Part shown: piece by piece, positions 1 to 58,424 of the stretch
Position numbering within the stretch: the stretch's first letter is position 1
Layout: each line of letters begins with the position of its first letter
DNA from: Candidatus Nealsonbacteria bacterium
Lineage (GTDB): Bacteria; Patescibacteriota; Minisyncoccia; Minisyncoccales; JAGMDC01
Assembly (NCBI GenBank): GCA_030612885.1
Contig: JAUWMZ010000003.1
Span: forward strand, 5,578 to 69,577
DNA length: 64,000 nucleotides
Reading direction: 5' to 3'
Position numbers and translations under genes: made by a program
The notes under the pieces: generated by a model
The model's database searches: none
What the model was told of the DNA's origin: nothing
Seen by the model: only the letters and a program-made list of their open reading frames with translations

Positions 1-602
1 CAGATTGGCAGTCCAGCGCCTATTTCTTCATCAAACATAAATAATTCTAGCCTTTGTCCCAGAATACGATGGTCTCTTTTTTCAGCTTCTTTTTGTTGGT
101 GAAGATAATCCTGCAGTTCTCTTTTGGTCTGGAAAGCCACACCGTAAATCCGAGTAAGCATTGGATTTTTTTCGTCTCCTTTCCAGTAAGCGCCGGCAAT
201 TTTAGTTAGTTTAAACGCTTCAGGATTTATCTCTTTGGTTGATTTAATATGAGGTCCCTTACATAAATCTATAAAATCGCCAGATTCATAAATAGTTATA
301 GTTTCTCTGGTCAGTTCTTTAATCAAATCCAATTTATAGGACTGATTTTTAAATAATTTATCGAAGTCGGACTTCGATAATTTAGATTTCTTAAAAGAAA
401 TGTTTTTTTTAATCATCTCTCGCATTTTCTTTTCAATTTTCGGCAAATCAGTAGGGGATATGGACTGCGGAAAATCAAAGTCATAATAAAAACCATTTTC
501 TATAGAAGGTCCAATACCAAATTTAGTCCCAGGATACATTTCCTGGACTGCTGCTGCTAAAATATGAGCCAATGAATGCCTAATTGTTTCAATTTTTACC
601 AC
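1..602 (-). CDS. thrS: threonyl-tRNA synthetase, N-terminal part (gene continues past the left edge of the window)
   Basis: Reverse frame reads [45 protein letters not shown]...[27 protein letters not shown]. This is the HxxxH second-additional-domain motif followed by the start of the class II core. An in-frame TAA lies directly upstream of the GTG at 602. No TGS domain. Confidence 0.85.
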   Translation of the reverse strand, partial: [200 protein letters not shown]

Positions 603-689
603 GAATATTTATTACGAATTAGAATCACTAATTATCACGAATAAATTATTAGTGAGTATTCGTGATTGAAATTCGTGATTGATTAGTGG

Positions 690-3600
690 TTAACCTTCCT
701 CCACTACTTCTTCAATTTCGTTGCAGATTATTTTAGGAACTCCGCCGCGATTGTCAACCCTTCCTCTAACCATTACGATTTTGTTCTCTTGAAAGATAGT
801 TGGATTTTGTTCAATCACTGATGGAAAAACCACTAATTCAATTTTGTCTGTCTGGTCTTCTAATTTAACAAAAAGCATTGGTTTGCCGTTTTTGGCAATG
901 ATTTTTTTGATGCTGCAAATTACTCCTCCAATCCTTACTATTTTTCCGGTTATATCCTGAGAAATTTTTACCAAAGGCAAAACCCTTTTTTCAAAAGCTT
1001 TTTTAAAACCCTCTAAGGGATGGCTGGTAATATATAATCCTAAAAGTTCTTTTTCCCAGTTTAACCTTTCTTTTTTTGAAGCTGAAGGAGCAGAAGAAAG
1101 AGTTATGTCATTATTTGAATTTTTTCCTTGATGATTAGCAGGTAAACTCTCAAAAAGTCCTTTTTGTCCATTGGCTTTATTTTTCTGGGTCTCTCGACTC
1201 CACTCTAACAATCTTTCCAGATTTTGCAAAAGCTTGTTCCTTTCTTCAAACTTATCAAAAGCGCCAGTTTTAATCAAGCTCTCCAATGATTTTTTATTGA
1301 GGTCTTTAGATCTAACCCTGGTGACAAAGTTCTCAATTGAAGCAAAAGAACCATTTTTCTTTCTTTCTTCAACTATTGCTTCTACTACATTATATCCAAC
1401 ATTTTTAATAGCTAAAAGCCCAAAGCGAATTTTCTTTTCATCTGGCACCACACTGAAATTTCTAAAACTTTCATTAATATCCGGAGGCAGAACTTCAATT
1501 TTCATTCTCTTGCATTCTTCAATTAAAAAGGCAATTTTTTCAATATCATTTTTTTCAGAAGTTAAAGCGGCAGCCATAAATTCAATCGGATAATTAGTTT
1601 TAAGATAAGCGGTTCGGTAAGCAATCATTGCGTAAGAAGCGGCATGCGACCTGTTAAATCCGTAACTGGCAAAAGGTAAAATCCATTCCCAGATTTTTTG
1701 GGCAATTTCTTTTTTAACTCCTTGATTTATAGCTCCGTTAATGAACTTTTCTTTTTGTTCTAAAAGAAGTTTTTTAATTTTTTTACCAACTGCTTTTCTC
1801 AAAACATCTGCTTCAGATAAAGAAAATCCAGATAGCTTTTGGGCAACCTGCATTAACTGTTCTTGGTAAACCATTATTCCATAGGTTCTTTCTAAAATTG
1901 GTTGTAATTTGGGATGAATATATTTTATTTTTTTGGGATTATGTTTTCCTTTTATATAACTTGGAATAAACTGTATTGGTCCGGGTCGGTATAAAGCAAC
2001 CATAGCGATAATGTCTTCAAACTCAGAAGGTTTAAGTTGTTTCAAATATCTTTTCATTCCATCTGATTCCAATTGAAACACAGATGTGCTTTCTCCTTTT
2101 TGCAAGAGTTGGTATGTTTTTTCATCATCTAAAGGAATATCTTCTATTTTAATACTTTTATCTTGAACTTTATAGATACGGCTTAGAGTGTCTTCAATAA
2201 TAGTCAGGTTTTTCAATCCTAAAAAGTCAATTTTCAATAACCCTAAATCATCAATAGAATGAAGTTCATATTGAGTAACGATTGTTTCATCTTTTTGAGT
2301 AGGGTGTTGAAGGGGCACTAATTCGGTCAAGGGTTCTTTAGAAATAACTACGCCGCAGGCATGAGTAGAAGCGTGCCTGGCAACTCCTTCTAATTTTTTA
2401 GCTAAATCAATCAGCCGAGTCGCTTTTTCATCTGATTCATAAATTTGCCTGAATTCGTCAATTTTTTCCAATGTCTGTTTCAGAGTAAACCCAAAAGGAA
2501 TAAGTTTAGCCAGATGATCGCAGTAGCTGTAGGGATACTGTAATGCTCTACCCACATCTCTTATTACTGCCCGGGAAGCCATTGTTCCAAAAGTAATTAT
2601 TTGAGCTACTTTATCCCGACCATACTTTTGAGCTACATAATTTATCACTTCATCTCTTCTCCAATCAGTAAAATCAATATCAAAATCTGGCATAGAGACA
2701 CGTTCTGGATTTAAAAAACGTTCAAATATCAATTCATATTTCATTGGATTTATATCGGTAATATTCAAAAGATAACACACTAATGAACCAGCATCGCTTC
2801 CGCGGCCCGGGCCCACTACAATCCGGTTTTCTTTTGCCCAATTAACAAAATCCTGAACAATAAGGAAAAAAGGGGCAAATTTGGTTTGTTTTATTATTGA
2901 AAGTTCATATTCTAATCGTTTTATCGCTTCATCGCGATTGACAATTTGCGATTTGCGCTTTTCCAATCCTTGCTCACATAACTCTTTTAGGTAATCGTCA
3001 GCAGTTTTATCTTCTGGCGCTGGAAAGTAGGGTAGTTTCATCTCGCCTAATTTAAATTCAAAATTACAGAGTTCTTTTATTTTTTGGGTATTTTCAATGG
3101 CTTCTGGAACTTCTTTGAAGTCATTGATCATTTTTTCCGGGCTTCTGACAGAATAATCATCCCACTTCATTGTTTTGCGGTTAGGGTTATCTGCTTTTGT
3201 ATCTGTATTGATCAACATTAAAACATCTTGGGCTTCATTGTCTTCAGGGTGAAGATAATGGCAGTCATTTGTTGCAACTAATGGAATACCCAATTTTTTA
3301 CTAAAAGAGATTAAGGTGTCATTAATAGTTTTTTGTCCGGGTAAATTAGGGTGGTGTTGAATTTCTAAATAGAAATTATCTTTGCCAAAAATTTCTTGAT
3401 ATTTTAACGCTGTTTTTTCTGCTTCTTCAATTTTCTTTGCTAAAATAAGGCAAGGAATTTTTCCCTGCAAGCAGGCAGTCATACCAATTAATCCTTCGCT
3501 GTGTTTAGCCAAGAGTTCTTCATCAATTCTCGGTTTATAATAAAAGCCCTCTAAATGGGCTTTGGTTACTAATTGGACCAGATTTTTATAACCTTTTTCA

Positions 3601-3884
3601 TTTTTAGCTAATAAAACTAAATGGTATTTCTTATCGTCAATATTGGGACGGCGCTGATTCATTTTTTCATAAGCCATATACACTTCACAGCCAATAATAG
3701 GTTTTATTCCTTTTGCTTTTGCTTTTTTATAAAATTCCACTGCGCCATACAAAACACCGTGGTCGGTCAAGGCAACTGAATCCATTCCTAATTCTTTTAC
3801 ATAATCCAAAAGCTCGTCTATTTTAGACAAGCCGTCTAATAGGGAATAGTGGCTATGCACATGGAGATGAGTGAACTCTGACAT
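690..3884 (-). CDS. dnaE: DNA polymerase III alpha subunit
   Basis: 1064-aa ORF. N-terminal PHP domain (MSEFTHLHVHSHYSLLDG), polymerase core (GPGRGSDAGSLVCYLLNITDINP, PDFDIDF), C-terminal OB-fold region. Confidence 0.95.
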   Translation of the reverse strand: MSEFTHLHVHSHYSLLDGLSKIDELLDYVKELGMDSVALTDHGVLYGAVEFYKKAKAKGIKPIIGCEVYMAYEKMNQRRPNIDDKKYHLVLLAKNEKGYKNLVQLVTKAHLEGFYYKPRIDEELLAKHSEGLIGMTACLQGKIPCLILAKKIEEAEKTALKYQEIFGKDNFYLEIQHHPNLPGQKTINDTLISFSKKLGIPLVATNDCHYLHPEDNEAQDVLMLINTDTKADNPNRKTMKWDDYSVRSPEKMINDFKEVPEAIENTQKIKELCNFEFKLGEMKLPYFPAPEDKTADDYLKELCEQGLEKRKSQIVNRDEAIKRLEYELSIIKQTKFAPFFLIVQDFVNWAKENRIVVGPGRGSDAGSLVCYLLNITDINPMKYELIFERFLNPERVSMPDFDIDFTDWRRDEVINYVAQKYGRDKVAQIITFGTMASRAVIRDVGRALQYPYSYCDHLAKLIPFGFTLKQTLEKIDEFRQIYESDEKATRLIDLAKKLEGVARHASTHACGVVISKEPLTELVPLQHPTQKDETIVTQYELHSIDDLGLLKIDFLGLKNLTIIEDTLSRIYKVQDKSIKIEDIPLDDEKTYQLLQKGESTSVFQLESDGMKRYLKQLKPSEFEDIIAMVALYRPGPIQFIPSYIKGKHNPKKIKYIHPKLQPILERTYGIMVYQEQLMQVAQKLSGFSLSEADVLRKAVGKKIKKLLLEQKEKFINGAINQGVKKEIAQKIWEWILPFASYGFNRSHAASYAMIAYRTAYLKTNYPIEFMAAALTSEKNDIEKIAFLIEECKRMKIEVLPPDINESFRNFSVVPDEKKIRFGLLAIKNVGYNVVEAIVEERKKNGSFASIENFVTRVRSKDLNKKSLESLIKTGAFDKFEERNKLLQNLERLLEWSRETQKNKANGQKGLFESLPANHQGKNSNNDITLSSAPSASKKERLNWEKELLGLYITSHPLEGFKKAFEKRVLPLVKISQDITGKIVRIGGVICSIKKIIAKNGKPMLFVKLEDQTDKIELVVFPSVIEQNPTIFQENKIVMVRGRVDNRGGVPKIICNEIEEVVEEG

Positions 3885-3968
3885 TAACTCATTATATCAC
3901 TTTACAATTTTCAGGCAAATTAAATTTACCCTCTTTTTTTATTATTGGTTTGTGTTATCATAAAATAT

Positions 3969-4274
3969 ATGATTTACATAGCTATTTTAATTGCTGGGTT
4001 TGGCGGCGGAGCAGTGAGAGGGCTGGTTGGTTATATCAAGCATCAGTATTCATACAAAAATGTTGGTTTTGATATTCCGTATTTTTTCACTATGATGTTT
4101 CTTTCCGGAATGATTGGGGTATTAGCCGCAGTGAGTATAAAAGAATTCGGGGTTAGTTTTTTAGGAATAGATGGATTTTCTCCTGCTTTAGGATTTATTG
4201 TCGGTTATGCCGGCGGCGACTTTATTGAAAATATTTACAAGATAATTACCAAAAGGCAAACCCTTGCCAAATAA
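3969..4274 (+). CDS. small integral membrane protein, unknown function
   Basis: ATG at 3969 inside the listed ORF. About 101 aa with three hydrophobic helices (IYIAILIAGFGGGAV, FFTMMFLSGMIGVLAAV, ALGFIVGYAGG). No family recognised. Confidence 0.5.
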   Translation: MIYIAILIAGFGGGAVRGLVGYIKHQYSYKNVGFDIPYFFTMMFLSGMIGVLAAVSIKEFGVSFLGIDGFSPALGFIVGYAGGDFIENIYKIITKRQTLAK

Positions 4275-5328: not shown

Positions 5329-6018
5329 ATGCACGACTTTTCTACACTTGAAAAAAAATTAGGTATAAAATTCAAAAACAAGGATTTGCTCATTCAAGCA
5401 TTCATCCACCGTTCTTATTTGAATGAAAATCCAGATTTTTATCTTTTTCACAATGAACGATTGGAATTTTTAGGTGATGCTGTTTTGGAGTTAGTAGTTA
5501 CTAAATATCTTTTTGAAAACTATCCCAAGAAACAAGAAGGGATGATGACTAATTGGCGAGCGGCCTTAGTGAATTCTAAAATGCTTTCAAAAATTTCTAA
5601 AATAGTTGGCTTTAATAGTTTTCTTTTACTTTCCCAGGGTGAAGAAAAAGAAACTGGTAAAGCCCGTCAATTCATATTAGCAAACACTTTTGAGGCGTTT
5701 ATAGGAGCTTTATATTTAGATCAAGGTTATGATGCCTGCGATAGATTTATCCGTCAACATTTAATAAAAACATTACCAGAGATTATTAAAAAAGGTCTTT
5801 TTAAAGACGCTAAATCTTCTTTCCAGGAACAAGCCCAGGAAAAAGTAGCAGTCACTCCGTCTTATAAAGTTTTGAAAGAATGGGGACCAGACCATAATAA
5901 AAATTTTGTAGTTGGTGCTTTTCTTAAAGAAAAACTAATCGCTGAAGGCGAGGGTTCTTCAAAACAAGAAGCAGAAGAGGCAGCAGCCAAAAATGCTCTG
6001 GAAACAAAGGGATGGTAA
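5329..6018 (+). CDS. rnc: ribonuclease III
   Basis: RNase III signature NERLEFLGDAVLELVV plus a C-terminal dsRNA-binding domain (GPDHNKNFVV...GSSKQEAEEAAAKNAL). Confidence 0.92.
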   Translation: MHDFSTLEKKLGIKFKNKDLLIQAFIHRSYLNENPDFYLFHNERLEFLGDAVLELVVTKYLFENYPKKQEGMMTNWRAALVNSKMLSKISKIVGFNSFLLLSQGEEKETGKARQFILANTFEAFIGALYLDQGYDACDRFIRQHLIKTLPEIIKKGLFKDAKSSFQEQAQEKVAVTPSYKVLKEWGPDHNKNFVVGAFLKEKLIAEGEGSSKQEAEEAAAKNALETKGW

Positions 6019-19828: not shown

Positions 19829-20278
19829 ATGGCTGAAGAACAAAAAAAAGAAACTTCTGAAAAAGAGGAGCCAAAAGAAGAGAAGGAGGTAAAAATTCCG
19901 GAAAAATTCAAAGATTTAGTTGAAAAAGTTGAAAAGATGTCTGTTTTGGATTTGGCAGAATTAGTCAAGATTTTAGAGAAAAAGTTTGGTGTCTCTGCTG
20001 CAGCTCCAATTGCTGCTGCTCCAGCCGGCGCTGCTCCTGCTGCTCAAGCAGAAGAAAAAACTGTCTTTAATATTGAGCTCACTGGCATTGGTGATAAGAA
20101 AATTGAAGTAATTAAGGTAGTAAAGGAAATTACTGAAAAAGGATTAAAAGAAGCAAAGGATTTAGTTGACGCTGCGGCAAGTTCTCCACAGATGATTAAA
20201 GAAAATGTTAAAAAAGAAGAAGCAGAGGAGATGAAAAAAAAGATAGAAACAGCTGGCGGAAAAGTAGAGTTGAAGTAA
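19829..20278 (+). CDS. rplL: 50S ribosomal protein L7/L12 (with N-terminal acidic extension)
   Basis: Ala/Pro hinge [21 protein letters not shown] and C-terminal domain [24 protein letters not shown]...[18 protein letters not shown]. Confidence 0.93.
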
Positions 20279-20329
20279 CATTTCCCGCTTTGCCCTTGAC
20301 AAATTCTAAAGGTTTGTTATAGTTGGAAT

Positions 20330-20476
20330 ATAGCAAAAAGCATAGTAGGTTTACTATGCTTTTTACATTAAGGGTGCGGGGTTCGAACTCCTCACCCTCA
20401 CAAAAGAGTCATTTCTGGGCGTCGGCTAAATGAATTTTTTTCCTCCTTAGTTCGACGCCCAAAAATGGCTCTTTTT
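20330..20476 (+). ncRNA. candidate structured RNA unit (three hairpins, CCUCC-containing loop)
   Basis: Promoter-like TTGACA (20296) -N16- TGtTATAGT (20318). Hairpins at 20335-64, 20371-98 (AGGGTGCGGGGTTCGAACTCCTCACCCT) and 20405-72 (20-bp stem, 28-nt loop containing TTCCTCCTTA), then TTTT. No ORF. Confidence 0.35.
20335..20364 (+). terminator. hairpin terminator after rplL
   Basis: AAAAAGCATAGTA-ggtt-TACTATGCTTTTT. Confidence 0.65.
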
Positions 20477-20805
20477 AGTAAGCTTGCCCTGTGGTAGAAA
20501 TTTGACCAAGAGTAAAAAATCCGCCGAGAATAGAAATTCTGACGGACAAAATAGGCAAATTATTACGACATAATCCAGCATTTATCCCGCAATGACTTTA
20601 AATATTCAGAGTATAGTATGTGGCTGGTCCTTTGCTAATTCTTTTTAAGAGTTTTGTTGACGCAAGTTCTTTTTAACTTTTGCTTCTATTTATATTATAT
20701 CGTGGGGATTAACCCTTGACAAGGTTTCTGGCTTGTGTAAGATAAATAATACAGAAAAGCGTTAGGGGATATTGACTTTTGTTTTGATTAAGTATAGTAT
20801 AAAAA

Positions 20806-20951
20806 AAGAAAAAGATAAAATTATTTAGCGGAGGAACTAAATAAATTTTCAGTGAATTTAGAATCATTGATATTAAATAATAATGATTTAAGAATATCAG
20901 GACTTCTTCGCAGAATTCAAATATGTTTTTGAAATGCGAAGGGGTTTTTTT
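20806..20951 (+). ncRNA. candidate sRNA or leader ending in a strong terminator
   Basis: Promoter-like elements at 20716 (TTGACA-N16-TAAGAT) and 20772 (TTGACT...TATAGT). Terminator CTTCGCA...TGCGAAG at 20906-41 followed by GGG and T7. Only trivial ORFs of 11 aa or fewer start with ATG. Confidence 0.4.
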
Positions 20952-21030
20952 ATTTTAAAAATAACAAAGGTCGGGTTGTAAGTGAGCCAAAAACTTACAA
21001 AAGATTAAAAAATTAATTTAGAACAAAAAT

Positions 21031-43825: not shown

Positions 43826-43900
43826 GGCCCTGTCGTCTAGCTTGGTCTAGGACGTCAGATTCTCAATCTGGTGACACGGGTTCAAATCCCGTCAGGGCCA
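43826..43900 (+). tRNA. tRNA-Glu (CTC)
   Basis: Acceptor GGCCCTG/CAGGGCC, anticodon stem TCAGA/TCTGG with loop TTCTCAA, T arm ACGGG-TTCAAAT-CCCGT. Confidence 0.85.
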
Positions 43901-43902
43901 CA

Positions 43903-44721
43903 ATAAAATTACAGTAGAACTACAGCAACCCGACCCATGTAAATTTTACCCATGTAAATTTTATTTATGCCTTATAGAAAACAACAATTTGTTAATGGCG
44001 AGATTTATCATGTTATGACGAGAAGAATTGGCGAGAATTTGCTTTTTAAGAATATAGATGATTATTACAGAGGAATTTTTTCTATTTATGAGTTTAATAC
44101 TTCAGATCTAGTTACCATTAGAGAACGTCGAAGAATCCGTGCCCAAATAAAAAAATTTAATAAAGTTAATAGTGACCCGATTCCTGTCATTGACACTCGC
44201 GATTTATTTGTGGAAATTTTAGCTTTTTGTTTTATGCCAAATCACGTTCATTTATTAGTTAGACAAGTTAGAGATGGAGGAATTAGTAAATTTATGCAAA
44301 AATTTGGTGCTGGTTATTCTGCTTATTTTAAAGAAAAGTATGACCTTCAAAGAAAAGGACACTTTTTTCAAGGAAGATTTGTATCAGTTCATATTAAGAC
44401 CGATGAACAATTAAAAATCGTGTTTGTATATATTCATACCAACCCTATATCTCTTATAGAACCGAAATGGAAAGAAATTGGAATTAAGAATCCAGATAAA
44501 GTCATTAAGTTTTTAAAAGATGACTATAAATGGTTTAGTTACCCTGATTATATCGGTAAAAAGAATTTTTCTTCAGTAACTGAAAGAGACTTTATTTTTA
44601 AAGTAATGGGAGGTACTCAAGATTGTGAATATTTTGTAGAAAATTGGATAAGACATAAGGGAAAAATAAAAAAATTCGTTGGCTTCGCATTGGAATAAAA
44701 ATTACAGGGGTCGGGTTGCTG
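43903..44721 (+). mobile_element. RayT/IS200-like Y1 transposase gene bracketed by a 14-bp inverted repeat and a 12-bp direct repeat
   Basis: Left: ATAAAATTACAG (43903) ... CAGCAACCCGACCC (43923-36). Right: ATAAAAATTACAG (44696) G GGTCGGGTTGCTG (44708-21). Lies 3 nt downstream of tRNA-Glu. Confidence 0.55.
43967..44698 (+). CDS. REP-associated tyrosine transposase-like (Y1_Tnp / COG1943) protein
   Basis: HUH motif in FMPNHVHLLV and catalytic-Tyr context VFVYIHTNPI. 243 aa. Confidence 0.8.
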   Translation: MPYRKQQFVNGEIYHVMTRRIGENLLFKNIDDYYRGIFSIYEFNTSDLVTIRERRRIRAQIKKFNKVNSDPIPVIDTRDLFVEILAFCFMPNHVHLLVRQVRDGGISKFMQKFGAGYSAYFKEKYDLQRKGHFFQGRFVSVHIKTDEQLKIVFVYIHTNPISLIEPKWKEIGIKNPDKVIKFLKDDYKWFSYPDYIGKKNFSSVTERDFIFKVMGGTQDCEYFVENWIRHKGKIKKFVGFALE

Positions 44722-45071
44722 TTTTTCTTTTTTATGACAGTGAAGATTTTCTTAAATTCGGTAAATTTGGTCTAGTCTCGTTTGATGTTCCAGGTAATGC
44801 GAGTGGTATGTATATAGAATGGGATGAAAGTAGAGATATTTTCAAAAGAGGGGCAGAGTTTGTTTCGCACAATATTAGTTATCCTTTACAGCAATCAGCC
44901 TTACTAAAGATTTGGCTTATGTGGGCTAAGTTTATAGAGATAAAGAGTAGAGACAAAATTAAATAACGGGGAGATAATTTCAACCCGCTTTTTTTTATTT
45001 TCGCTTCAAATTTATTTTACAAAGCAGAATAAATATGGTATACTTTCTTTAGGACATAAAAAGTGATAAAA

Positions 45072-45272
45072 ATGATTAAAACAGGTAAAATTACTCTGGA
45101 AGAGATAGGCGCGAGAGGAGCAGTTCTTAAGGTAAAAAATGGAGACCATAAATTTACATTGAGAGAAAAATTAGCAATGGGTTTTCCGATAGATGTAGTG
45201 ATAATAGAAGAAATGGAAGTAGATGATAATAATACAGCGATCAAGAGGATTATACCTTTGCAATTAATATAG
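45072..45272 (+). CDS. 66-aa hypothetical protein
   Basis: Promoter TTTACA (45016) -N17- TGgTATACT (45039). Terminator-like AGGGCTTTA...TAAAACCCT followed by T8 at 45272-45305. No family recognised. Confidence 0.5.
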   Translation: MIKTGKITLEEIGARGAVLKVKNGDHKFTLREKLAMGFPIDVVIIEEMEVDDNNTAIKRIIPLQLI

Positions 45273-45433
45273 GGCTTTATCTATCAAATAAAACCCTTTT
45301 TTTTATTAAGGACTTGTCCTGTGGATAACTGCTATTGACAGCATTTTTGGTTGATTTATTATTCTATTGTGAGAGATTTTGCAAGAGTAGTCGACTTGTT
45401 TTCTCTCTGATAAAATAAAAAACTATTTAAAAT

Positions 45434-45529
45434 ATGACAACCGAATTTTTAATGGAAGATGTAGAAGGCGAAGAAGGAGAAGTTAAAGAAGAAGAAAAAA
45501 AAGAAGAAGAAGAAGAATCTGAAGAGTAA
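45434..45529 (+). CDS. 31-aa hyper-acidic micro-ORF (tentative)
   Basis: MTTEFLMEDVEGEEGEVKEEEKKEEEEESEE, followed by the strong terminator AAAAAGCCGTTCC-tttg-GAACGGCTTTTT (45548-45575). Confidence 0.3.
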   Translation: MTTEFLMEDVEGEEGEVKEEEKKEEEEESEE

Positions 45530-45627
45530 AACAGAAAAAAGCTTTAAAAAGCCGTTCCTTTGGAACGGCTTTTTGTTTGAAATGAAATTGGCTTGAGTTT
45601 GCGGTTAAAAAGAGTTAGAATATAAAA

Positions 45628-46323
45628 ATGAACAATAAAAAAATACAACTTTCGCCAAGTTCTTTAAACTTGTTTTTGGAATGTCCGCATTGTTTTTGGC
45701 TGGATAAAAGCCATGGGATTAAAAGACCAGCTCCTTTTCCTTATGCTCTTAATATGGCTGTGGATACTCTTTTGAAACAAGAGTTTGACGAATACAGGGT
45801 CAAAAATGAACCTCATCCCTTGCTTAAAATTCACAATATTCCTGCCAAACTTTTTTCCAATCAGAGCTTGCTGAATCAATGGCGCAGTAATTTTCAAGGG
45901 ATACGTTATTATGATTCTGAATTAGACGCAACTCTTTTTGGAGCAGTTGATGATATTTTGGAATTTCCAGACAATAAATTAGCCCCGCTTGACTACAAAT
46001 CTACTGGCAGCCGCGTTCCTACCGTATATGACCGCTTTCAACTGCAAATGGATGTTTATACTTTTCTGTTGGAGAAAAACGGCTATCCAACCACGCGAAA
46101 AGGTTATTTAGCTTTTTATATTGTTGACAGGGAAAACGGTTTTAACGACAGATTGCCTTTTAAAAAAGAAATTCATGAGATAGATGTTGATACATCATAT
46201 GTTCAAAATCTTTTTAAAGAAGCAGTGGAAACTCTAAAAGGAGAAATACCGCCTCCTCATAGTCCGGACTGCCAATATAATAAATGGCTTAAGGGTGTGG
46301 GATCGAACCAGAATCAAGTTTAG
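45628..46323 (+). CDS. PD-(D/E)XK nuclease, Cas4/RecB-like
   Basis: N-terminal Cys cluster LECPHCFW, catalytic pattern GAVDDILEF...LAPLDYKS, QxxxY-like QLQMDVYTF, C-terminal Cys (SPDCQYN). The last ~10 codons lie inside inverted repeat IR-L of the downstream element. Confidence 0.75.
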   Translation: MNNKKIQLSPSSLNLFLECPHCFWLDKSHGIKRPAPFPYALNMAVDTLLKQEFDEYRVKNEPHPLLKIHNIPAKLFSNQSLLNQWRSNFQGIRYYDSELDATLFGAVDDILEFPDNKLAPLDYKSTGSRVPTVYDRFQLQMDVYTFLLEKNGYPTTRKGYLAFYIVDRENGFNDRLPFKKEIHEIDVDTSYVQNLFKEAVETLKGEIPPPHSPDCQYNKWLKGVGSNQNQV

Positions 46324-46560
46324 AAGCGAAATAAAGAGCTGATTTCGAGAAGCGACGACGAAGGAGTATTATTAATACTTCAAGGAGGAGCGACAAAGAA
46401 ATCAGCCATTATTTCGCTTCCCTTTGGGCGGGTGAATTTTATCCAGATTCTTTGTTGCTCGTCGCTTATGTATCCTCTGGATACTTTACGCTCCTCGCGC
46501 GCCTCGAATTTGAATAAAATTCGCTCCGCTAAATTGATTTTGGTTCGAACCCCGCACCCT
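46292..46560. repeat. ~270-bp element bounded by 26/27-bp imperfect inverted repeats, internally highly self-complementary
   Basis: IR-L AGGGTGTGGGATCGAACCAGAATCAA (46292-46317). IR-R TTGATTTTGGTTCGAACCCCGCACCCT (46534-46560). Internal ~98-nt hairpin 46323-46420 (GAAGCGAAATAA...TTATTTCGCTTC). The 18-mer AGGGTGCGGGGTTCGAAC recurs at 20371. Confidence 0.6.
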
Positions 46561-46681
46561 GAGCCAGGCGTCAAATTTTGAGTAAATTCAATTAAACAGT
46601 ATTTCTTTGTTTTGTTTATTAGGGAAGATTTATCTTCCTCTTTTTGTTTACTTAAATTCTTTAACAAGGTAAAATAAAACA

Positions 46682-49309
46682 ATGTCTAATAAAATCTGGC
46701 ATAATCTTTTTCTCCAGGAGGTAATTGAAATTTTGAAAACTGATACAGAAAAAGGGTTGTCTAATGAAGAAGTAATAGAAAGGCGAAAAAAATTTGGCTT
46801 AAACAGGCTTCCTGAAGAAAAACATCTATCTAAAACAGAGATATTTTTTGAGCAGTTTAAAAGCCCTTTAATTTATATTTTAGTCATTGCTGGGATTGGC
46901 ACTGCTGTTTTTAAACTTTATACTGACAGTATTGTTATTATGGCTGCTATTCTTTTTAATACTGTTGTCGGCTATTTTCAGGAAAACAAAGCGTCTAAAG
47001 CATTAAGAGAATTAAAAAAAATAGTTAAGATAGAGACCAAAGTAATCAGAGAAGGCAGAGAAAGAAGGCTTGATGCTGAAAATCTTGTGCCCGGAGATAT
47101 TATTGTTCTGTCTTCTGGAGATAAGGTGCCGGCTGACGGCCGTTTAATTGAGAATTACGGACTTAAAATCAATGAATCGCCCTTAACCGGCGAGTGGCTG
47201 TCAGCTAAAAAAACAACAGATATTCTGCCTCAGAAAACTTCAATAGCTGATAGGGACAATATGGTCTATATGGGTTGTGTAATAGAAGGAGGGAAAGGCA
47301 AAGCAGTAATTACTGAAACTGGCAAAGATACAGAAATAGGCAGGGTAGCTGATTTAATAAAAGAAACTAAAGAAGAAAAAACACCTCTCCAGAAAAGAAT
47401 AGCTGTTTTGAGCAAGAAAATCGGACTCATTGTTACTATTTTCGCTTTCTATATTTTCTTGGCAGGCCTGCTTAAGGGCCAAGGCGCTTTAGAGATGTTT
47501 GAAGTAGCTGTAGCTGTAGCTGTAGCCGCTATTCCAGAAGGGCTTCCGATTGCTGTGACTGTAATTTTAGCTCTTGGAATGATGAGAATTTTGAAAAGAA
47601 AAGGCCTGGTAAGAAAACTAGTGGCAGCAGAAACATTAGGGAGCACTTCTATTATTGCCACTGACAAAACATTAACTCTAACTGAAGGGAGGATGGAAGT
47701 GGCAGAAATTATTAGTTCTGATAAAAAAACAGAGGCACTGACTTTAAAGGCAGCTGTCTTATGCAGCGAAGCATTTATAGAAAATCCTGAAGCTCTTTAT
47801 CCTGTTTGGAAAATTCAGGGCGAACCTACCGACAAAGCATTTATTGCGGCTGGCGCTAAGCTTGGTTTTGAAAAACCAAGGATAGAAAAAGAATGTTTGG
47901 AAATTGACGAAATTCCTTTTAATACTGAAAATAAATTTATTGCCAGCTTGCGCCAGGAAAACAAAAAGGAAAATATCTTGTATGTTTCCGGCGCGCCAGA
48001 AAAAATTATTTCTCTTTCTTCTTATTCATTAGTCAAAAGCAGAAATAGAATATTAAATGATAGATTAAAACAGAGATTAAATAAACAATTGGAAAAATTA
48101 ACTGAAAAAGGACTAAGAGTGGTGGCAACAGCACAGAGAAAATTAAAAAGTAAAGATGAAAAAGGAAAAAGTTTGGAAGAGGAAGTCAAAGATTTATGTT
48201 TTTTAGGGTTTATTGCGCTTAAAGATCCTGTTAGAAAAGAGGCGAAAGAGGCAATAAGGATTTGTAAAAAAGCGGGCATGATGCCAATGATTGTTACTGG
48301 GGACCATAAATTAACTGCCAAAGCAGTAGCCATTGAAATAGGATTTAGAATAAAAGAAAAAAATATTATAGAAGGCCAAGAATTAGATGAGCTTTCAGAT
48401 GAAGAATTCGAAAGAAGAATTAAAGATATACAAGTTTATGCCCGGGTTGAACCAAAACATAAATTAAGGATAATTCAGGCCTGGCAGAGAAAGGGAGAAG
48501 TAGTAGCAATGACTGGTGATGGAATTAATGATGCGCCAGCTCTCAAAAAAGCTGATATTGGCATAGCTTTAGGTTCGGGCACTGATGTGGCAAAAGAAGT
48601 TTCAGATCTAATTTTACTAAGTGATAATTTTAATGTTATTGTATCTACAATAGAAGAGGGAAGAGCAATAATGGATAATATTAGAAAAGTCATTACTTAT
48701 CTACTTTCCGGTTCTTTTACAGAGACCATTTTAATTGGAGTAAGTATTGTTTTAGGCCTTCCTTTGCCTGTTATCGCTGTTCAAATATTATGGGTAAATT
48801 TAATTGAAGATAGTTTGCCCAGCATGGCTTTAACTTTTGAGCCGAAAGAAAAGGACTTAATGAAGCAAAAACCGCAGGAAAAAGGCAGTCCTCTTTTGAC
48901 AAAGGAAATGAAGGCCTTGATTTTTATTATTGGAATTATTACAGATATCCTGCTTTTAGTATTATTTTTTTTGCTTTTAAGATATTCTAATTATAGCCAT
49001 ACACATATTCAGTCAATAATTTTTGCAGCTTTAGCTATTGATTCTCTTTTTTATATTTTTTCCTGCAAGAGTTTAAGAAGAAATATTTGGCATATAAATC
49101 TTTTTTCTAACAAACTTTTAATTTTGAGCTGGATTGTTGGGTTAACAGCTTTAATAGCTGCTTTATATGTTCCAGCATTGCAAACGCTTTTAAAAACTGT
49201 GCCGTTAAATTGGTCTGACTGGAAATTGATTTTAGGAATAGGAATTTCTAATTTAATCTTAATTGAGGCAACGAAATGGTATTTCATTACTAAGAAACAA
49301 AAAATATGA
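46682..49309 (+). CDS. P-type cation-transporting ATPase (P2, Ca2+-ATPase-like) with atypical DKTLT phosphorylation motif
   Basis: PLTGEW (TGE), IIATDKTLTLTEG (canonical DKTGTLT), MIVTGDH, MTGDGINDAPALKKADIGIA, 10-TM topology. Confidence 0.9.
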   Translation: MSNKIWHNLFLQEVIEILKTDTEKGLSNEEVIERRKKFGLNRLPEEKHLSKTEIFFEQFKSPLIYILVIAGIGTAVFKLYTDSIVIMAAILFNTVVGYFQENKASKALRELKKIVKIETKVIREGRERRLDAENLVPGDIIVLSSGDKVPADGRLIENYGLKINESPLTGEWLSAKKTTDILPQKTSIADRDNMVYMGCVIEGGKGKAVITETGKDTEIGRVADLIKETKEEKTPLQKRIAVLSKKIGLIVTIFAFYIFLAGLLKGQGALEMFEVAVAVAVAAIPEGLPIAVTVILALGMMRILKRKGLVRKLVAAETLGSTSIIATDKTLTLTEGRMEVAEIISSDKKTEALTLKAAVLCSEAFIENPEALYPVWKIQGEPTDKAFIAAGAKLGFEKPRIEKECLEIDEIPFNTENKFIASLRQENKKENILYVSGAPEKIISLSSYSLVKSRNRILNDRLKQRLNKQLEKLTEKGLRVVATAQRKLKSKDEKGKSLEEEVKDLCFLGFIALKDPVRKEAKEAIRICKKAGMMPMIVTGDHKLTAKAVAIEIGFRIKEKNIIEGQELDELSDEEFERRIKDIQVYARVEPKHKLRIIQAWQRKGEVVAMTGDGINDAPALKKADIGIALGSGTDVAKEVSDLILLSDNFNVIVSTIEEGRAIMDNIRKVITYLLSGSFTETILIGVSIVLGLPLPVIAVQILWVNLIEDSLPSMALTFEPKEKDLMKQKPQEKGSPLLTKEMKALIFIIGIITDILLLVLFFLLLRYSNYSHTHIQSIIFAALAIDSLFYIFSCKSLRRNIWHINLFSNKLLILSWIVGLTALIAALYVPALQTLLKTVPLNWSDWKLILGIGISNLILIEATKWYFITKKQKI

Positions 49310-56455: not shown

Positions 56456-58171
56456 ATGAATAAAGGAGAAAGAAGATTAGGAAAAAAAATTCTTAAAGAG
56501 ATGCAAGAAATGGGCGAAAAGACGGGCTGGAATGTTTCGGTTGAAGAAGCGGAAAAAGTAAAAAAGGATGATGTTATAAACGAAACAAAAGAAAAAATAA
56601 AAAGGTCGGAACAAAAAGATGAAAATAATAATAACAACAAAAATATGAAAAAACAAGAAAAAGGAGAAAAAATAGCAGATAAAAAAATAGATAAAGATAA
56701 TATGTCAAAGGAAGAGCAAGATGAAATACTGGAAGCGAGAAAAAGAGAAAAGAATGAGCGAGAAGCAAAAAAAGGCGAAGGCGGGAAAAAAGAAGGCATG
56801 GAGGGAAAAGGAGAAAAGAAAAAATCTCCTGAATTAGGAGAAAAGTTAAAAGAGGAGAAAAGAAAGAAAACAGAGCTTCGGAAAAGTGAAATTTATAGAA
56901 GATTTTACGACAAAGAGAGATTTAGCATAGATAAAGATACTATTAAAAGTATCCAGGGCATTCTTGAGGAGCAAATGAAAGATATTTTAGTTATTCAAGG
57001 TAAAGAATGGTTAAAAGAGCAAATAGAAAATTACCCAGATAATTATCCGGAATTGGCAGGGCAAGATACAGATAAGTTTGATGAAAGTAGAGTCATGGAT
57101 TGTGTGAGAGATAAGAATGAGTTTTGGGATTTACTTGATAAAGAAAATAAAGAATGGAAAGACGCTGAAAATTTAAGAGAATCAATAGAATATTTTGGAG
57201 AAGATCTTCCTCCGGATATAAAGACGGCAATTTTTAACCGTCTTCCTGAAGGTTCGATTAAAGAAAAGGTTTGGGAAAAGCTTACTGGAGAAAATTTAGA
57301 CGAGAAAACAAAGATAGAGGCAGGCATAGGAGAAAAAAATGAATATGTAGAGAGAAAGATAGAAGATTTTAAAATTGAAGAAAGAAATAAATTTTTTGAG
57401 AATGAATGGAATGAATTATCGCCTGAACAACAAAGAGCAGCTGGGAATATTGATGATTATTCTCAATCAAGAATAATTTATTTACAAGAAATCCTAAATA
57501 AGAATTTGAAAGGATTAAAAAAAATAGAAGAAACCGATATTCTTGGTCTTTTAGAGCAGGGAGCCAGTCCTGAAAAGATTAAAAACATGAAAGCGGCAAG
57601 AAAGATTCTTCCTGAATTTATTGCAGCGAGAAAAATCAAAATAGAAGGAATAAAAGGCAAGAAAACAATAAACGTTCTGGAAGAGATGATTAAAAATGGT
57701 AACGAAGAAAGGGTCAGAAAGATTGATGAAGAGAAATTAATAAAGGAAGAAAATTGGGAAACTACATTTAAAGATAAAAAATCAGAAATTCTTGAAGACG
57801 AAGCAGACAAAACCACAGATGAAATAATAGAAAAATGTTACGAAAAAATAGGAAGAGATGTAGCGGCACGAGAATTATCAAAAGAAATTGACAAAAATCC
57901 TAAAAGAAAAGCGAAAATAGAAAAAGAATTTGGAAAAGGCAAAGAAGGGAAAGAGAATATAAAAAAAGAATTTACTAAATTAATAAAAAAAGATGAAGAG
58001 TTAGAAGGGGAATGGGGAGAAGATGAGGAAGATTTAAGAGAAACTCTTGAAAGCTGGGGGATTGAGCCGGAAAAACTTACAGACGAACAGAAAGAAACTT
58101 ATAAAGAATTTTCAGAAAAAAAATGGGGATTAGTTGATTGGATTTTAGCAATTATTTTTGGAGAAATATGA
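56456..58171 (+). CDS. 571-aa hyper-charged Glu/Lys-rich protein E with hydrophobic C-terminal tail
   Basis: Continuous purine-rich ORF. Ends KKWGLVDWILAIIFGEI. Confidence 0.6.
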   Translation: MNKGERRLGKKILKEMQEMGEKTGWNVSVEEAEKVKKDDVINETKEKIKRSEQKDENNNNNKNMKKQEKGEKIADKKIDKDNMSKEEQDEILEARKREKNEREAKKGEGGKKEGMEGKGEKKKSPELGEKLKEEKRKKTELRKSEIYRRFYDKERFSIDKDTIKSIQGILEEQMKDILVIQGKEWLKEQIENYPDNYPELAGQDTDKFDESRVMDCVRDKNEFWDLLDKENKEWKDAENLRESIEYFGEDLPPDIKTAIFNRLPEGSIKEKVWEKLTGENLDEKTKIEAGIGEKNEYVERKIEDFKIEERNKFFENEWNELSPEQQRAAGNIDDYSQSRIIYLQEILNKNLKGLKKIEETDILGLLEQGASPEKIKNMKAARKILPEFIAARKIKIEGIKGKKTINVLEEMIKNGNEERVRKIDEEKLIKEENWETTFKDKKSEILEDEADKTTDEIIEKCYEKIGRDVAARELSKEIDKNPKRKAKIEKEFGKGKEGKENIKKEFTKLIKKDEELEGEWGEDEEDLRETLESWGIEPEKLTDEQKETYKEFSEKKWGLVDWILAIIFGEI

Positions 58172-58175
58172 ACCT

Positions 58176-58379
58176 ATGACTAATATTCTTCTTACAAATA
58201 AATCCTTGGAAGGCCTTATTAAAGAAACTCCATTAATAGCAGAAGAACAAAGAAAGAAATTTTTAGATAGATTGCCTTATTTAGACGAGAAAGAAAGAAT
58301 TGATCTTTTCAAAACTTTAAAAGATATCATTTTACTTGAGGCAGAAAAAGAAGAGGCAATTCAAGGAATGAAAGAATAG
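58176..58379 (+). CDS. 67-aa helical protein F
   Basis: ATG at 58176 inside the listed ORF. MTNILLTNKSLEGLIKETPLIAEEQRKKFLDRLPYLDEKERIDLF... Confidence 0.45.
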   Translation: MTNILLTNKSLEGLIKETPLIAEEQRKKFLDRLPYLDEKERIDLFKTLKDIILLEAEKEEAIQGMKE

Positions 58380-58424
58380 AAAAAATTCTTTAATTTTTAA
58401 ATTCGTAATTAGGACATTTTTACA

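Follow-up and report, generated by a model that had tools for sequence, protein, structure and literature searches.

A 271-nt palindromic insertion near the end of a Nealsonbacteria nuclease gene, probably a low-copy non-coding mobile element

The DNA considered here is a stretch of 64,000 nucleotides of contig JAUWMZ010000003.1 from a Candidatus Nealsonbacteria bacterium (positions 5,578 to 69,577 of the forward strand; hereafter the window). The genome is of the Nealsonbacteria/Parcubacteria type, with the samples SRR12623518/20, ERZ4219663 and ERZ4220366 as its origin, and the GC content of the window is 34%. The window carries a gene for a nuclease of the PD-(D/E)XK family, the 3' end of which is interrupted by a highly palindromic insertion of 271 nt. 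In our view, this feature is probably a mobile DNA element of about 271 bp, both non-coding and non-autonomous, which inserted near the end of the nuclease gene and which resembles foldback MITEs (miniature inverted-repeat transposable elements) and REPINs, the hairpin-forming doublets of repetitive extragenic palindromic (REP) units. The features of the locus and of one further site in the window are given below, with the evidence in brackets.

45628 to 46323, plus strand: open reading frame (ORF) of the PD-(D/E)XK (Cas4-like) nuclease in its present reading (ORF list; PF12705)
46291 to 46561, plus strand: inserted element, 271 nt net (its deletion yields a seamless alignment with the empty site of the relative L001)
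46292 to 46317, plus strand: left terminal inverted repeat, consisting of the outer arm AGGGTGTGGG(A), the centre TCGAAC and the inner arm CAGAATCAA (repeat search; fold)
46323 to 46420, plus strand: hairpin H1, 98 nt, with purine-rich internal loops (GCGACGA, GGAGGAGCG) (fold; repeat search)
46421 to 46426, plus strand: linker in the middle of the element (the CCCTTTGGG region), retained by both known copies and the centre of the pseudo-twofold symmetry (alignment; folds)
46427 to 46529, plus strand: hairpin H2, about 103 nt, with the pyrimidine-rich internal loops GTTGCTCGTCGC and TCCTCGCGC (alignment; fold; repeat search)
46534 to 46560, plus strand: right terminal inverted repeat, consisting of the inner arm TTGATTTTGG, the centre TTCGAA and the outer arm CCCCGCACCCT (repeat search)
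46562 to 46585, plus strand: native end of the nuclease gene in its displaced position, AGC CAG GCG TCA AAT TTT GAG TAA, i.e. SQASNFE* (aligns with SQASKF* of L001 and with orthologue C-termini)
46622 to 46650, plus strand: intrinsic terminator of the nuclease gene, host sequence outside the element (terminator scan; conserved in the element-free L001)
20371 to 20398, plus strand: solitary 28-nt palindrome AGGGTGCGGGG-TTCGAA-CTCCTCACCCT (full hairpin AGGGTGCGGGGTTCGAACTCCTCACCCT), in which both outer repeat arms are joined at the TTCGAA centre

The protein encoded by the nuclease gene matches PF12705 with 47.6 bits, which places it in the PD-(D/E)XK family. Its designation as Cas4-like in the original prediction has to be qualified, since the similarity to Cas4 itself is below threshold (28 bits with TIGR00372, the cutoff being 65). 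Homologues of the protein (n = 1226) have a typical length of 227-228 aa, and the C-terminus of about 35 orthologues follows the consensus W-[LF]-x-x-[AV]-x-x-F and not the ending KGVGSNQNQV, which is consistent with an insertion in the window. The final 10 codons (KGVGSNQNQV) and the TAG stop (46291-46323) are supplied by the element; they had rightly been assigned to the left repeat, with the ORF ending at 46323. Among the 37 nuclease orthologue loci that were compared, L001 from a Candidatus Parcubacteria metagenome-assembled genome (MAG) is the closest syntenic relative (identity of the nuclease 91% at the protein and 91.4% at the DNA level), and a gene for a P-type ATPase follows the nuclease gene in both the window and L001. 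The empty site of L001 reads ...AAATGGCTC|AGCCAGGCATCAAAATTTTGA, and the window reads ...AAATGGCTT[271 nt]AGCCAGGCGTCAAATTTTGAGTAA at the insertion. When positions 46291-46561 are taken out, the window aligns with L001 without gaps through the end of the gene, the terminator hairpin and the P-type ATPase gene. The element sits between the codons for W-L and those for S-Q, and once it is removed, the protein regains its usual ending W-L-S-Q-A-S-x-F. The 271-nt stretch is an insertion, and it is precise relative to the empty site of L001. Its boundaries can be moved by 1 nt to the left or to the right (46290-46560 or 46292-46562), with each of the three placements costing one substitution against L001. 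The empty site contains no pre-existing palindrome and is most simply explained by an insertion of 271 nt without target duplication. With a GC content of 45% as compared with 34% for the genome, the element is also of foreign composition.

The 3' end of the nuclease gene is displaced by the element and not replaced, the native tail being intact downstream. The original prediction of a MITE-like insertion that replaced the 3' end is thus essentially correct in its first part, as evidenced by the empty site of L001, the orthologue C-termini and a second copy of the element in another genome (L028, see below), but not in its second part, given the native tail at 46562-46585. Likewise, the terminator-like hairpin that had been counted as part of the element is the host terminator at 46622-46650, which is conserved in the element-free L001. 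The element, the length of which is not a multiple of 3, cuts the reading frame short and puts 10 new residues in place of 7 native ones. Rickettsia palindromic elements (RPE) insert in frame and are translated within the host protein. The element described here is similar to RPE in being a palindromic non-coding repeat inside a protein-coding gene of a bacterium with a reduced genome. However, it differs from RPE by its length of 271 nt and by bringing a stop after 10 codons.

The inverted repeats, the hairpins and the recurrence of an 18-mer, on which the original prediction had been built, were all recovered at the same positions and far above chance. In a repeat search, the terminal arms extend to 36 nt with 75% complementarity (46285-46320 and 46531-46566). 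They enclose H1, the outer arms of which pair perfectly over 12 nt, and H2, the tip of which is the small GTATCC/GGATAC hairpin. H2 is a diverged reverse complement of H1, as indicated by a score of 44.5 in the window against 22.7 +/- 5.4 for shuffles (z about 4) and by a score of 35 against 20.3 +/- 4.8 (z about 3) in the L028 copy. In the repeat search, the 3' half of H1 also pairs with the 5' half of H2. Consequently, the whole element is a pseudo-twofold "palindrome of two hairpins". The loops GTTGCTCGTCGC and TCCTCGCGC of H2 are invariant across the two known copies and complementary to the loops of H1. A kissing interaction between the loops of H1 and H2 was considered and rejected; the energies of the loop duplexes are 1.5-2.3 standard deviations better than those of shuffles, which is no stronger than ancestry by inverted duplication predicts. 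The RNA fold of the plus strand has an energy of -130.2 kcal/mol (z = -10.9; not reached by any of 200 shuffles) and that of the minus strand an energy of -111.4 kcal/mol (z = -7.9). With DNA energy parameters, the two strands are nearly equal (-62.5 and -59.2). Moreover, the covariance model of the plus strand also matches the minus strand of the element with 95 bits. None of the six reading frames is conserved between the two copies, and a protein search with the longest spurious ORF of the element (100 aa), in which mis-called genes over related elements were also sought, returned no homologue.

The second full copy is located at L028:1-272 in the Patescibacteria MAG RA.bin113. It is 67% identical to the element (nhmmer, E = 2.4e-83; cmsearch, 251 bits) and the sole match among all compared loci. 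In L028, the copy forms the extreme end of the contig and is located upstream of pyrB, in a context unlike the nuclease site. In L110/L111, from a relative of the L028 genome (pyrB 73% identical), rplU is followed directly by pyrB and the element is lacking. Both full copies are in the sense orientation of the flanking genes. The fold common to both copies is a three-way junction, which consists of the terminal stem, H1, a CCCUUYGGGG linker and H2. When the structure derived from the window is applied to both copies, 91.5% of the cells are paired, as compared with 34-48% for slid partners. Pairs changed on both sides number 13, against 0-3 with slid partners and 6.4 +/- 1.7 in shuffled controls, and an independent count by RNAalifold gave 12 compensatory pairs. 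Compared with L028, the outer stem of H1 contains four compensatory pairs, its tip three and H2 five. The visible part of the terminal stem of L028 (ATTAG/CTAAT) still pairs, the equivalent in the window being GAACC/GGTTC. The terminal GCRCCCT is common to both copies, and the ends are paired in L028, too. The blocks that are invariant between the copies are GAGCTGATTTC, GAAATCAGCCATT, GTTGCTCGTCGC, TCCTCGCGC and GCTCCGCTAAATTGATT.

In addition to the two full copies, short palindromes were found that can be regarded as remnants of the element. The 18-mer AGGGTGCGGGGTTCGAAC is repeated at 20371-20388, for which 0.02 matches are expected by chance. This confirms the recurrence; the position holds no second full copy but only the self-contained 28-nt hairpin, just after the rplL terminator; beyond this hairpin, the 20371 region has no similarity to the element. 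We interpret the palindrome as the remnant of a copy that has lost its interior. A further 28-nt palindrome, AGGGTGTGGGGTTCGAACCCCACACCCT, which is perfect, is present at L083:2743-2770 and L062:3007-3034 between divergent genes of a metagenome contig with 32% GC. In the closest strain, L109 (ENA ERZ23498673 scaffold_101677; nuclease gene 94.3% identical at the nucleotide level), the sequence at L109:1072-1112 reads TGGCTT|GAGAGTGCGGGATACTCTC|AAAG..., i.e. a 19-nt hairpin occupies the identical insertion site. The first 13 nt of this insert match the left repeat at 11 of 13 positions, the last 6 match the right terminus, and a change from GGG/CCC to GAG/CTC preserves the hairpin. The downstream gene in L109 is DUF5701 and not the P-type ATPase gene, with the break in synteny lying exactly at the insertion site. 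A further contig, L118:836-1750 (Logan SRR12623520_307813), is identical to the window up to position 46335, which includes the first 45 nt of the element, and then runs into unrelated DNA, the opposite strand of which codes for a membrane protein. This switch inside the element is either a rearrangement or an assembly chimera.

In the solitary 28-nt palindromes, the outer arms are fused at TTCGAAC, the repeat that is present in both terminal repeats. To judge from their sequences, these palindromes match what slippage across a long palindrome should produce. In Tn10/Tn5, "nearly precise excision" removes the DNA between short direct repeats that lie within the inverted ends. The 28-nt palindromes, with their outer arms fused at TTCGAAC, and the 19-nt hairpin retained in L109 are reminiscent of this process. 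However, in contrast to Tn10/Tn5, the excision mechanism of the element is deduced from sequence alone, with no before-and-after pair for the 28-nt palindromes. As side observations, a AAAGGTCGGGTT motif similar to the REP-like motif of the window lies about 50 nt downstream of the L062/L083 palindrome, and the non-coding gap after rplL is unusually long (750 nt, window 20279-21030). The gap holds a bidirectional-looking terminator (20335-20365), several TTGACA-17-TATAAT-like promoters and a near-perfect hairpin of 77 nt (20402-20478), and no Rfam family was detected in it at E <= 10. The 77-nt hairpin, which lies beside the 20371 palindrome, was examined as a copy of the element and rejected since its sequence is unrelated.

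The element resembles MITEs in its size (271 nt, i.e. less than about 500 bp), in its lack of coding capacity and in its terminal inverted repeats with arms of 26-36 nt. Insertion polymorphism is also evident from the empty sites in L001 and L110. The small size, the non-coding nature and the terminal repeats are in line with the MITE-like insertion of the original prediction; a MITE in the strict sense would also have an identical target-site duplication, multiple copies and an autonomous parent, none of which was demonstrated. No target-site duplication of fixed length is apparent at the four sites, and neither a TA duplication (IS630/mariner type) nor a TNA duplication nor a CT core (IS110 type) is consistent across them. 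The palindrome-associated elements derived from IS200/IS605 are not a match either, given the long terminal repeats and the differing left flanks (GCTT, CATT and AGAC). Correia elements (Correia repeat enclosed elements, CREE) of Neisseria are 100-155 bp long, occur in hundreds of copies, are flanked by a TA duplication, and, when co-transcribed, fold into long hairpins cleavable by RNase III. Like these elements and MITEs such as RUP and Nezha, the element is small and non-coding, has terminal inverted repeats of about 26 bp, lies in or beside genes and is polymorphic between strains. Unlike Correia elements, it is 271 bp long, is present as one full copy in about 80 kb, has non-identical flanks at four sites and contains two hairpins of 100 nt that are maintained by compensatory changes. 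REP units of 20-40 nt and REPINs of about 100 nt are both abundant and extragenic. The element has in common with REPINs, which are mobilised by REP-associated tyrosine transposases (RAYTs), a doublet of inverted palindromic modules (H2 resembles the reverse complement of H1), a conservation based on structure, no obvious duplication and a RAYT-like gene nearby. However, this gene has other flanking repeats, and the element has a terminal stem of 26 nt in addition.

Several observations weigh against a mobile DNA element. Only two full copies are known. Searches with the nhmmer profile and the covariance model, which covered about 415 kb from this genome and its relatives (the window, 25 kb of additional flank of the same genome, the 37 orthologous loci and others), revealed no third one. 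In the roughly 80 kb of this genome, there is one full copy and one remnant, and 35 related loci contain no copy; in the window, nothing beyond the 28-nt hairpin came up with blastn-short, the profile or the covariance model, and the additional 25 kb are free of copies. The data therefore fall short of the multi-copy status that characterises MITEs and REPINs. No transposase was found, nor any autonomous element sharing the ends of this one; with the 18-mer as query, viral and metagenome contigs yielded tRNA 3' ends and one palindrome, that of L062/L083. Four patterns of the conserved core gave nothing real in viral contigs, and a phage collection contained no match to the element. The flanks at the four sites compared are TA..GA (element), TA..CA (20371), CA..TA (L083) and TG..CA (L109), without an identical target-site duplication, although four sites are a weak test. 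Furthermore, invariant unpaired loops in H2 next to variable stems, as read from two sequences, would suit a functional RNA or a binding site for a protein better than a junk spacer. Finally, the predicted RNA fold favours the plus strand by 19 kcal/mol in the window and by 4 kcal/mol in L028, because the plus strand has extra G-U pairs (window, 8 against 4; L028, 6 against 2; total, 14 against 6). This modelled asymmetry is a weak hint that leans towards selection at the RNA level, and it is tempered by the location of the window copy on the G-rich leading strand.

A low-copy foldback type that inserts precisely and decays to mini-palindromes is nevertheless the best-supported description of the element. 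Its family appears to be rare, is previously undescribed and matches no known class; no described family of non-coding mobile repeats in Patescibacteria was found in the literature. The element would be moved in trans by an enzyme that is encoded outside the window. This enzyme most likely recognises a folded single strand and may be of the HUH/Y1 or tyrosine recombinase type, because no identical duplication has been demonstrated and because the hairpin structure and not the sequence is conserved; a classic DDE cut-and-paste route seems less likely. HUH/Y1 transposases act on the folded strands of REPINs and of IS200/IS605 ends, and tyrosine recombinases act on attC and CTX hairpins. The long palindrome is presumably unstable and could collapse by slippage between the direct repeats containing TTCGAAC to give the 28-nt mini-palindromes. 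As long as it is present, the element would be co-transcribed with the nuclease gene and form a terminal duplex of at least 30 bp, which should be a substrate of RNase III; the gene for this enzyme (rnc) is encoded in the same genome.

Among the alternatives, a functional RNA deserves the most attention. The element could be a structured RNA gene on the plus strand, i.e. a three-way junction of about 270 nt with a long closing stem, which is mobile or was horizontally acquired and which is selected for its activity; this might be that of a guide, decoy, scaffold or ribozyme. We assign only a modest chance to this possibility, which takes up the earlier suggestion of a structured non-coding RNA closed by a long stem. 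The fold that is conserved with 12-13 compensatory pairs between the copies argues in favour of it, as do the G-U pairs that favour the plus strand in both copies, with an asymmetry that appears only with RNA parameters, the invariant internal loops GUUGCUCGUCGC and UCCUCGCGC and the sense orientation of both copies to the flanking genes. However, no Rfam family was found even at E <= 10, the element has no convincing promoter or terminator of its own, with promoter-like matches within the shuffled expectation, and both strands fold well as a consequence of the global palindrome. The G-U bias is weak, and the window copy lies on the G-rich strand. The absence from the closest relatives, the interruption of a gene and the decay to remnants are rather the behaviour of selfish DNA. 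It is also conceivable, albeit improbable, that Patescibacteria have a new class of mobile structured RNA, with a pseudo-twofold three-way junction of about 270 nt, and that the element is its DNA form. This would explain the precise insertion without duplication, the G-U bias of the plus strand and the invariant loops. In that case, the complementary loops (GCGACGA/GGAGGAGCG and GUUGCUCGUCGC/UCCUCGCGC) could serve the mobility or processing of the element itself, and the RNA could, by analogy, be a guide for a recombinase like bridge or omega RNAs or a small new self-splicing or self-cleaving RNA. In total, a functional mobile RNA is a live alternative that is tentatively retained behind the mobile DNA element. 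It is unlikely that the element is a REPIN-like doublet mobilised by the product of the RAYT-like Y1 (HUH) gene at 43967-44698, 1.6 kb upstream. This gene matches Y1_Tnp (PF01797, 47.8 bits), and its best NCBIfam match is the REP-associated tyrosine transposase NF047646, with a score of 46 bits that remains under the curated cutoff of 80. Moreover, the Y1 block and the element are both missing from L001, and two inverted hairpin modules, structure-based conservation and the lack of a clear duplication fit such a doublet. However, the Y1 gene is bracketed by its own inverted GGTCGGGTTGCTG repeats (43935-, 44709+), which have no similarity to the ends of the element, and it was rejected as the partner of the element for this reason. 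There is also no Y1 gene in the 5.8-kb L028 locus, and REPINs are usually extragenic and abundant.

Two further explanations have very little probability. An intron, self-splicing or removed by the host, would leave an mRNA that regains the SQASNFE* ending, and with the boundaries 46291-46561 a U ends the upstream exon and a G ends the element, as in group I introns. Although excision restores the frame exactly, with 7 native codons and the stop intact, this holds for the removal of any precise insertion. Two near-perfect hairpins of 100 nt are not compatible with a P3-P9 core, no group I or group II intron or ribozyme was matched at E <= 10, and an intron of the archaeal type was rejected on inspection because the junction lacks the bulge-helix-bulge geometry. 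Furthermore, the L028 copy is intergenic and, judging by synteny, lies between rplU and pyrB and not in a coding sequence. The likeness of the repeat ends to tRNA T-loops and the tmRNA 5' end, which was pointed out in the original prediction, is real for the outer repeat arm only. The outer 18 nt of the right repeat are identical to the 3' end (T-loop, T-stem and acceptor strand) of tRNAs from unrelated organisms, so that the outer arm corresponds to the antisense of tRNA T-arm and acceptor ends, and each end read outward on either strand gives a T-loop, 5 nt, 7 nt, G and CCA. A gene or pseudogene derived from tRNA or tmRNA, or else an integrase or Xer (dif-like) module with hybrid att sites, could be envisaged, also given that the solitary palindromes have the 11-6-11 nt arrangement of dif and that the ends of the element, with outer arm, centre and inner arm, are built like hybrid sites. 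However, such a reading is largely refuted. ARAGORN and the tRNA and tmRNA covariance models (RF00005, RF00023) were negative at 46292-46560 and 20371. In 46100-46800 and 20250-20900, ARAGORN and Rfam (gathering thresholds and E <= 10) gave only chance-level hits, with no tRNA, tmRNA, intron or ribozyme. The arm is not conserved in L028, and the T-loop-like GGTTCGAACC motif, a lineage-specific feature, and CCA are missing from the L028 copy and the other palindromes. The G-CCA at tRNA-like spacing after each end was dismissed as a coincidence, the CCA being host coding sequence, which is found in the empty site as well but not at the other copies. In addition, the empty site offers no pre-existing palindrome for site-specific recombination, and no switch in GC skew occurs at 20371, the skew being positive across 4-60 kb.

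The genomes of the candidate phyla radiation (Patescibacteria) are tiny and usually described as poor in mobile DNA. The nuclease site has been found in three states, namely empty, with the full insertion and with a palindromic remnant, which indicates that such elements move and decay in these genomes. They also remodel gene ends and mark points of rearrangement, as illustrated by the different downstream gene in L109 and the break inside the element in L118. For annotation, the element accounts for odd C-termini and stray perfect palindromes in these MAGs, and contigs can break at such repeats, as suggested by the L028 copy at a contig end. If the conserved fold indeed acts as an RNA, the element would represent a new class of mobile RNA.

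The Y1 gene belongs to a block of about 1.4 kb (43893-45309), which directly follows a tRNA-Glu gene (43826-43901) and contains two small ORFs without Pfam hits in addition to the Y1/HUH gene. Like the element, this block is absent from the syntenic L001. The GGTCGGGTTGCTG repeats around the Y1 gene recur at 20969+ and 27699-/27721+, once as a hairpin with a 14-bp stem at about 27690-27735. From their sequences, the block and these repeats look like a separate system of the REP/RAYT type. Between the block and the nuclease gene, a 31-codon ORF at 45435-45530 encodes a peptide of extreme acidity, MTTEFLMEDVEGEEGEVKEEEKKEEEEESEE, and a terminator with a perfect 13-bp stem comes next at 45546-45574, just 5' of the nuclease gene. 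On the scale of the window, the GC skew is negative at the two ends (about 1-4000 and 58000-64000) and strongly positive between them, which parallels the switch to genes on the minus strand (dnaE at 690-3884; cysS-like and dnaB-like genes at 60584-63955).

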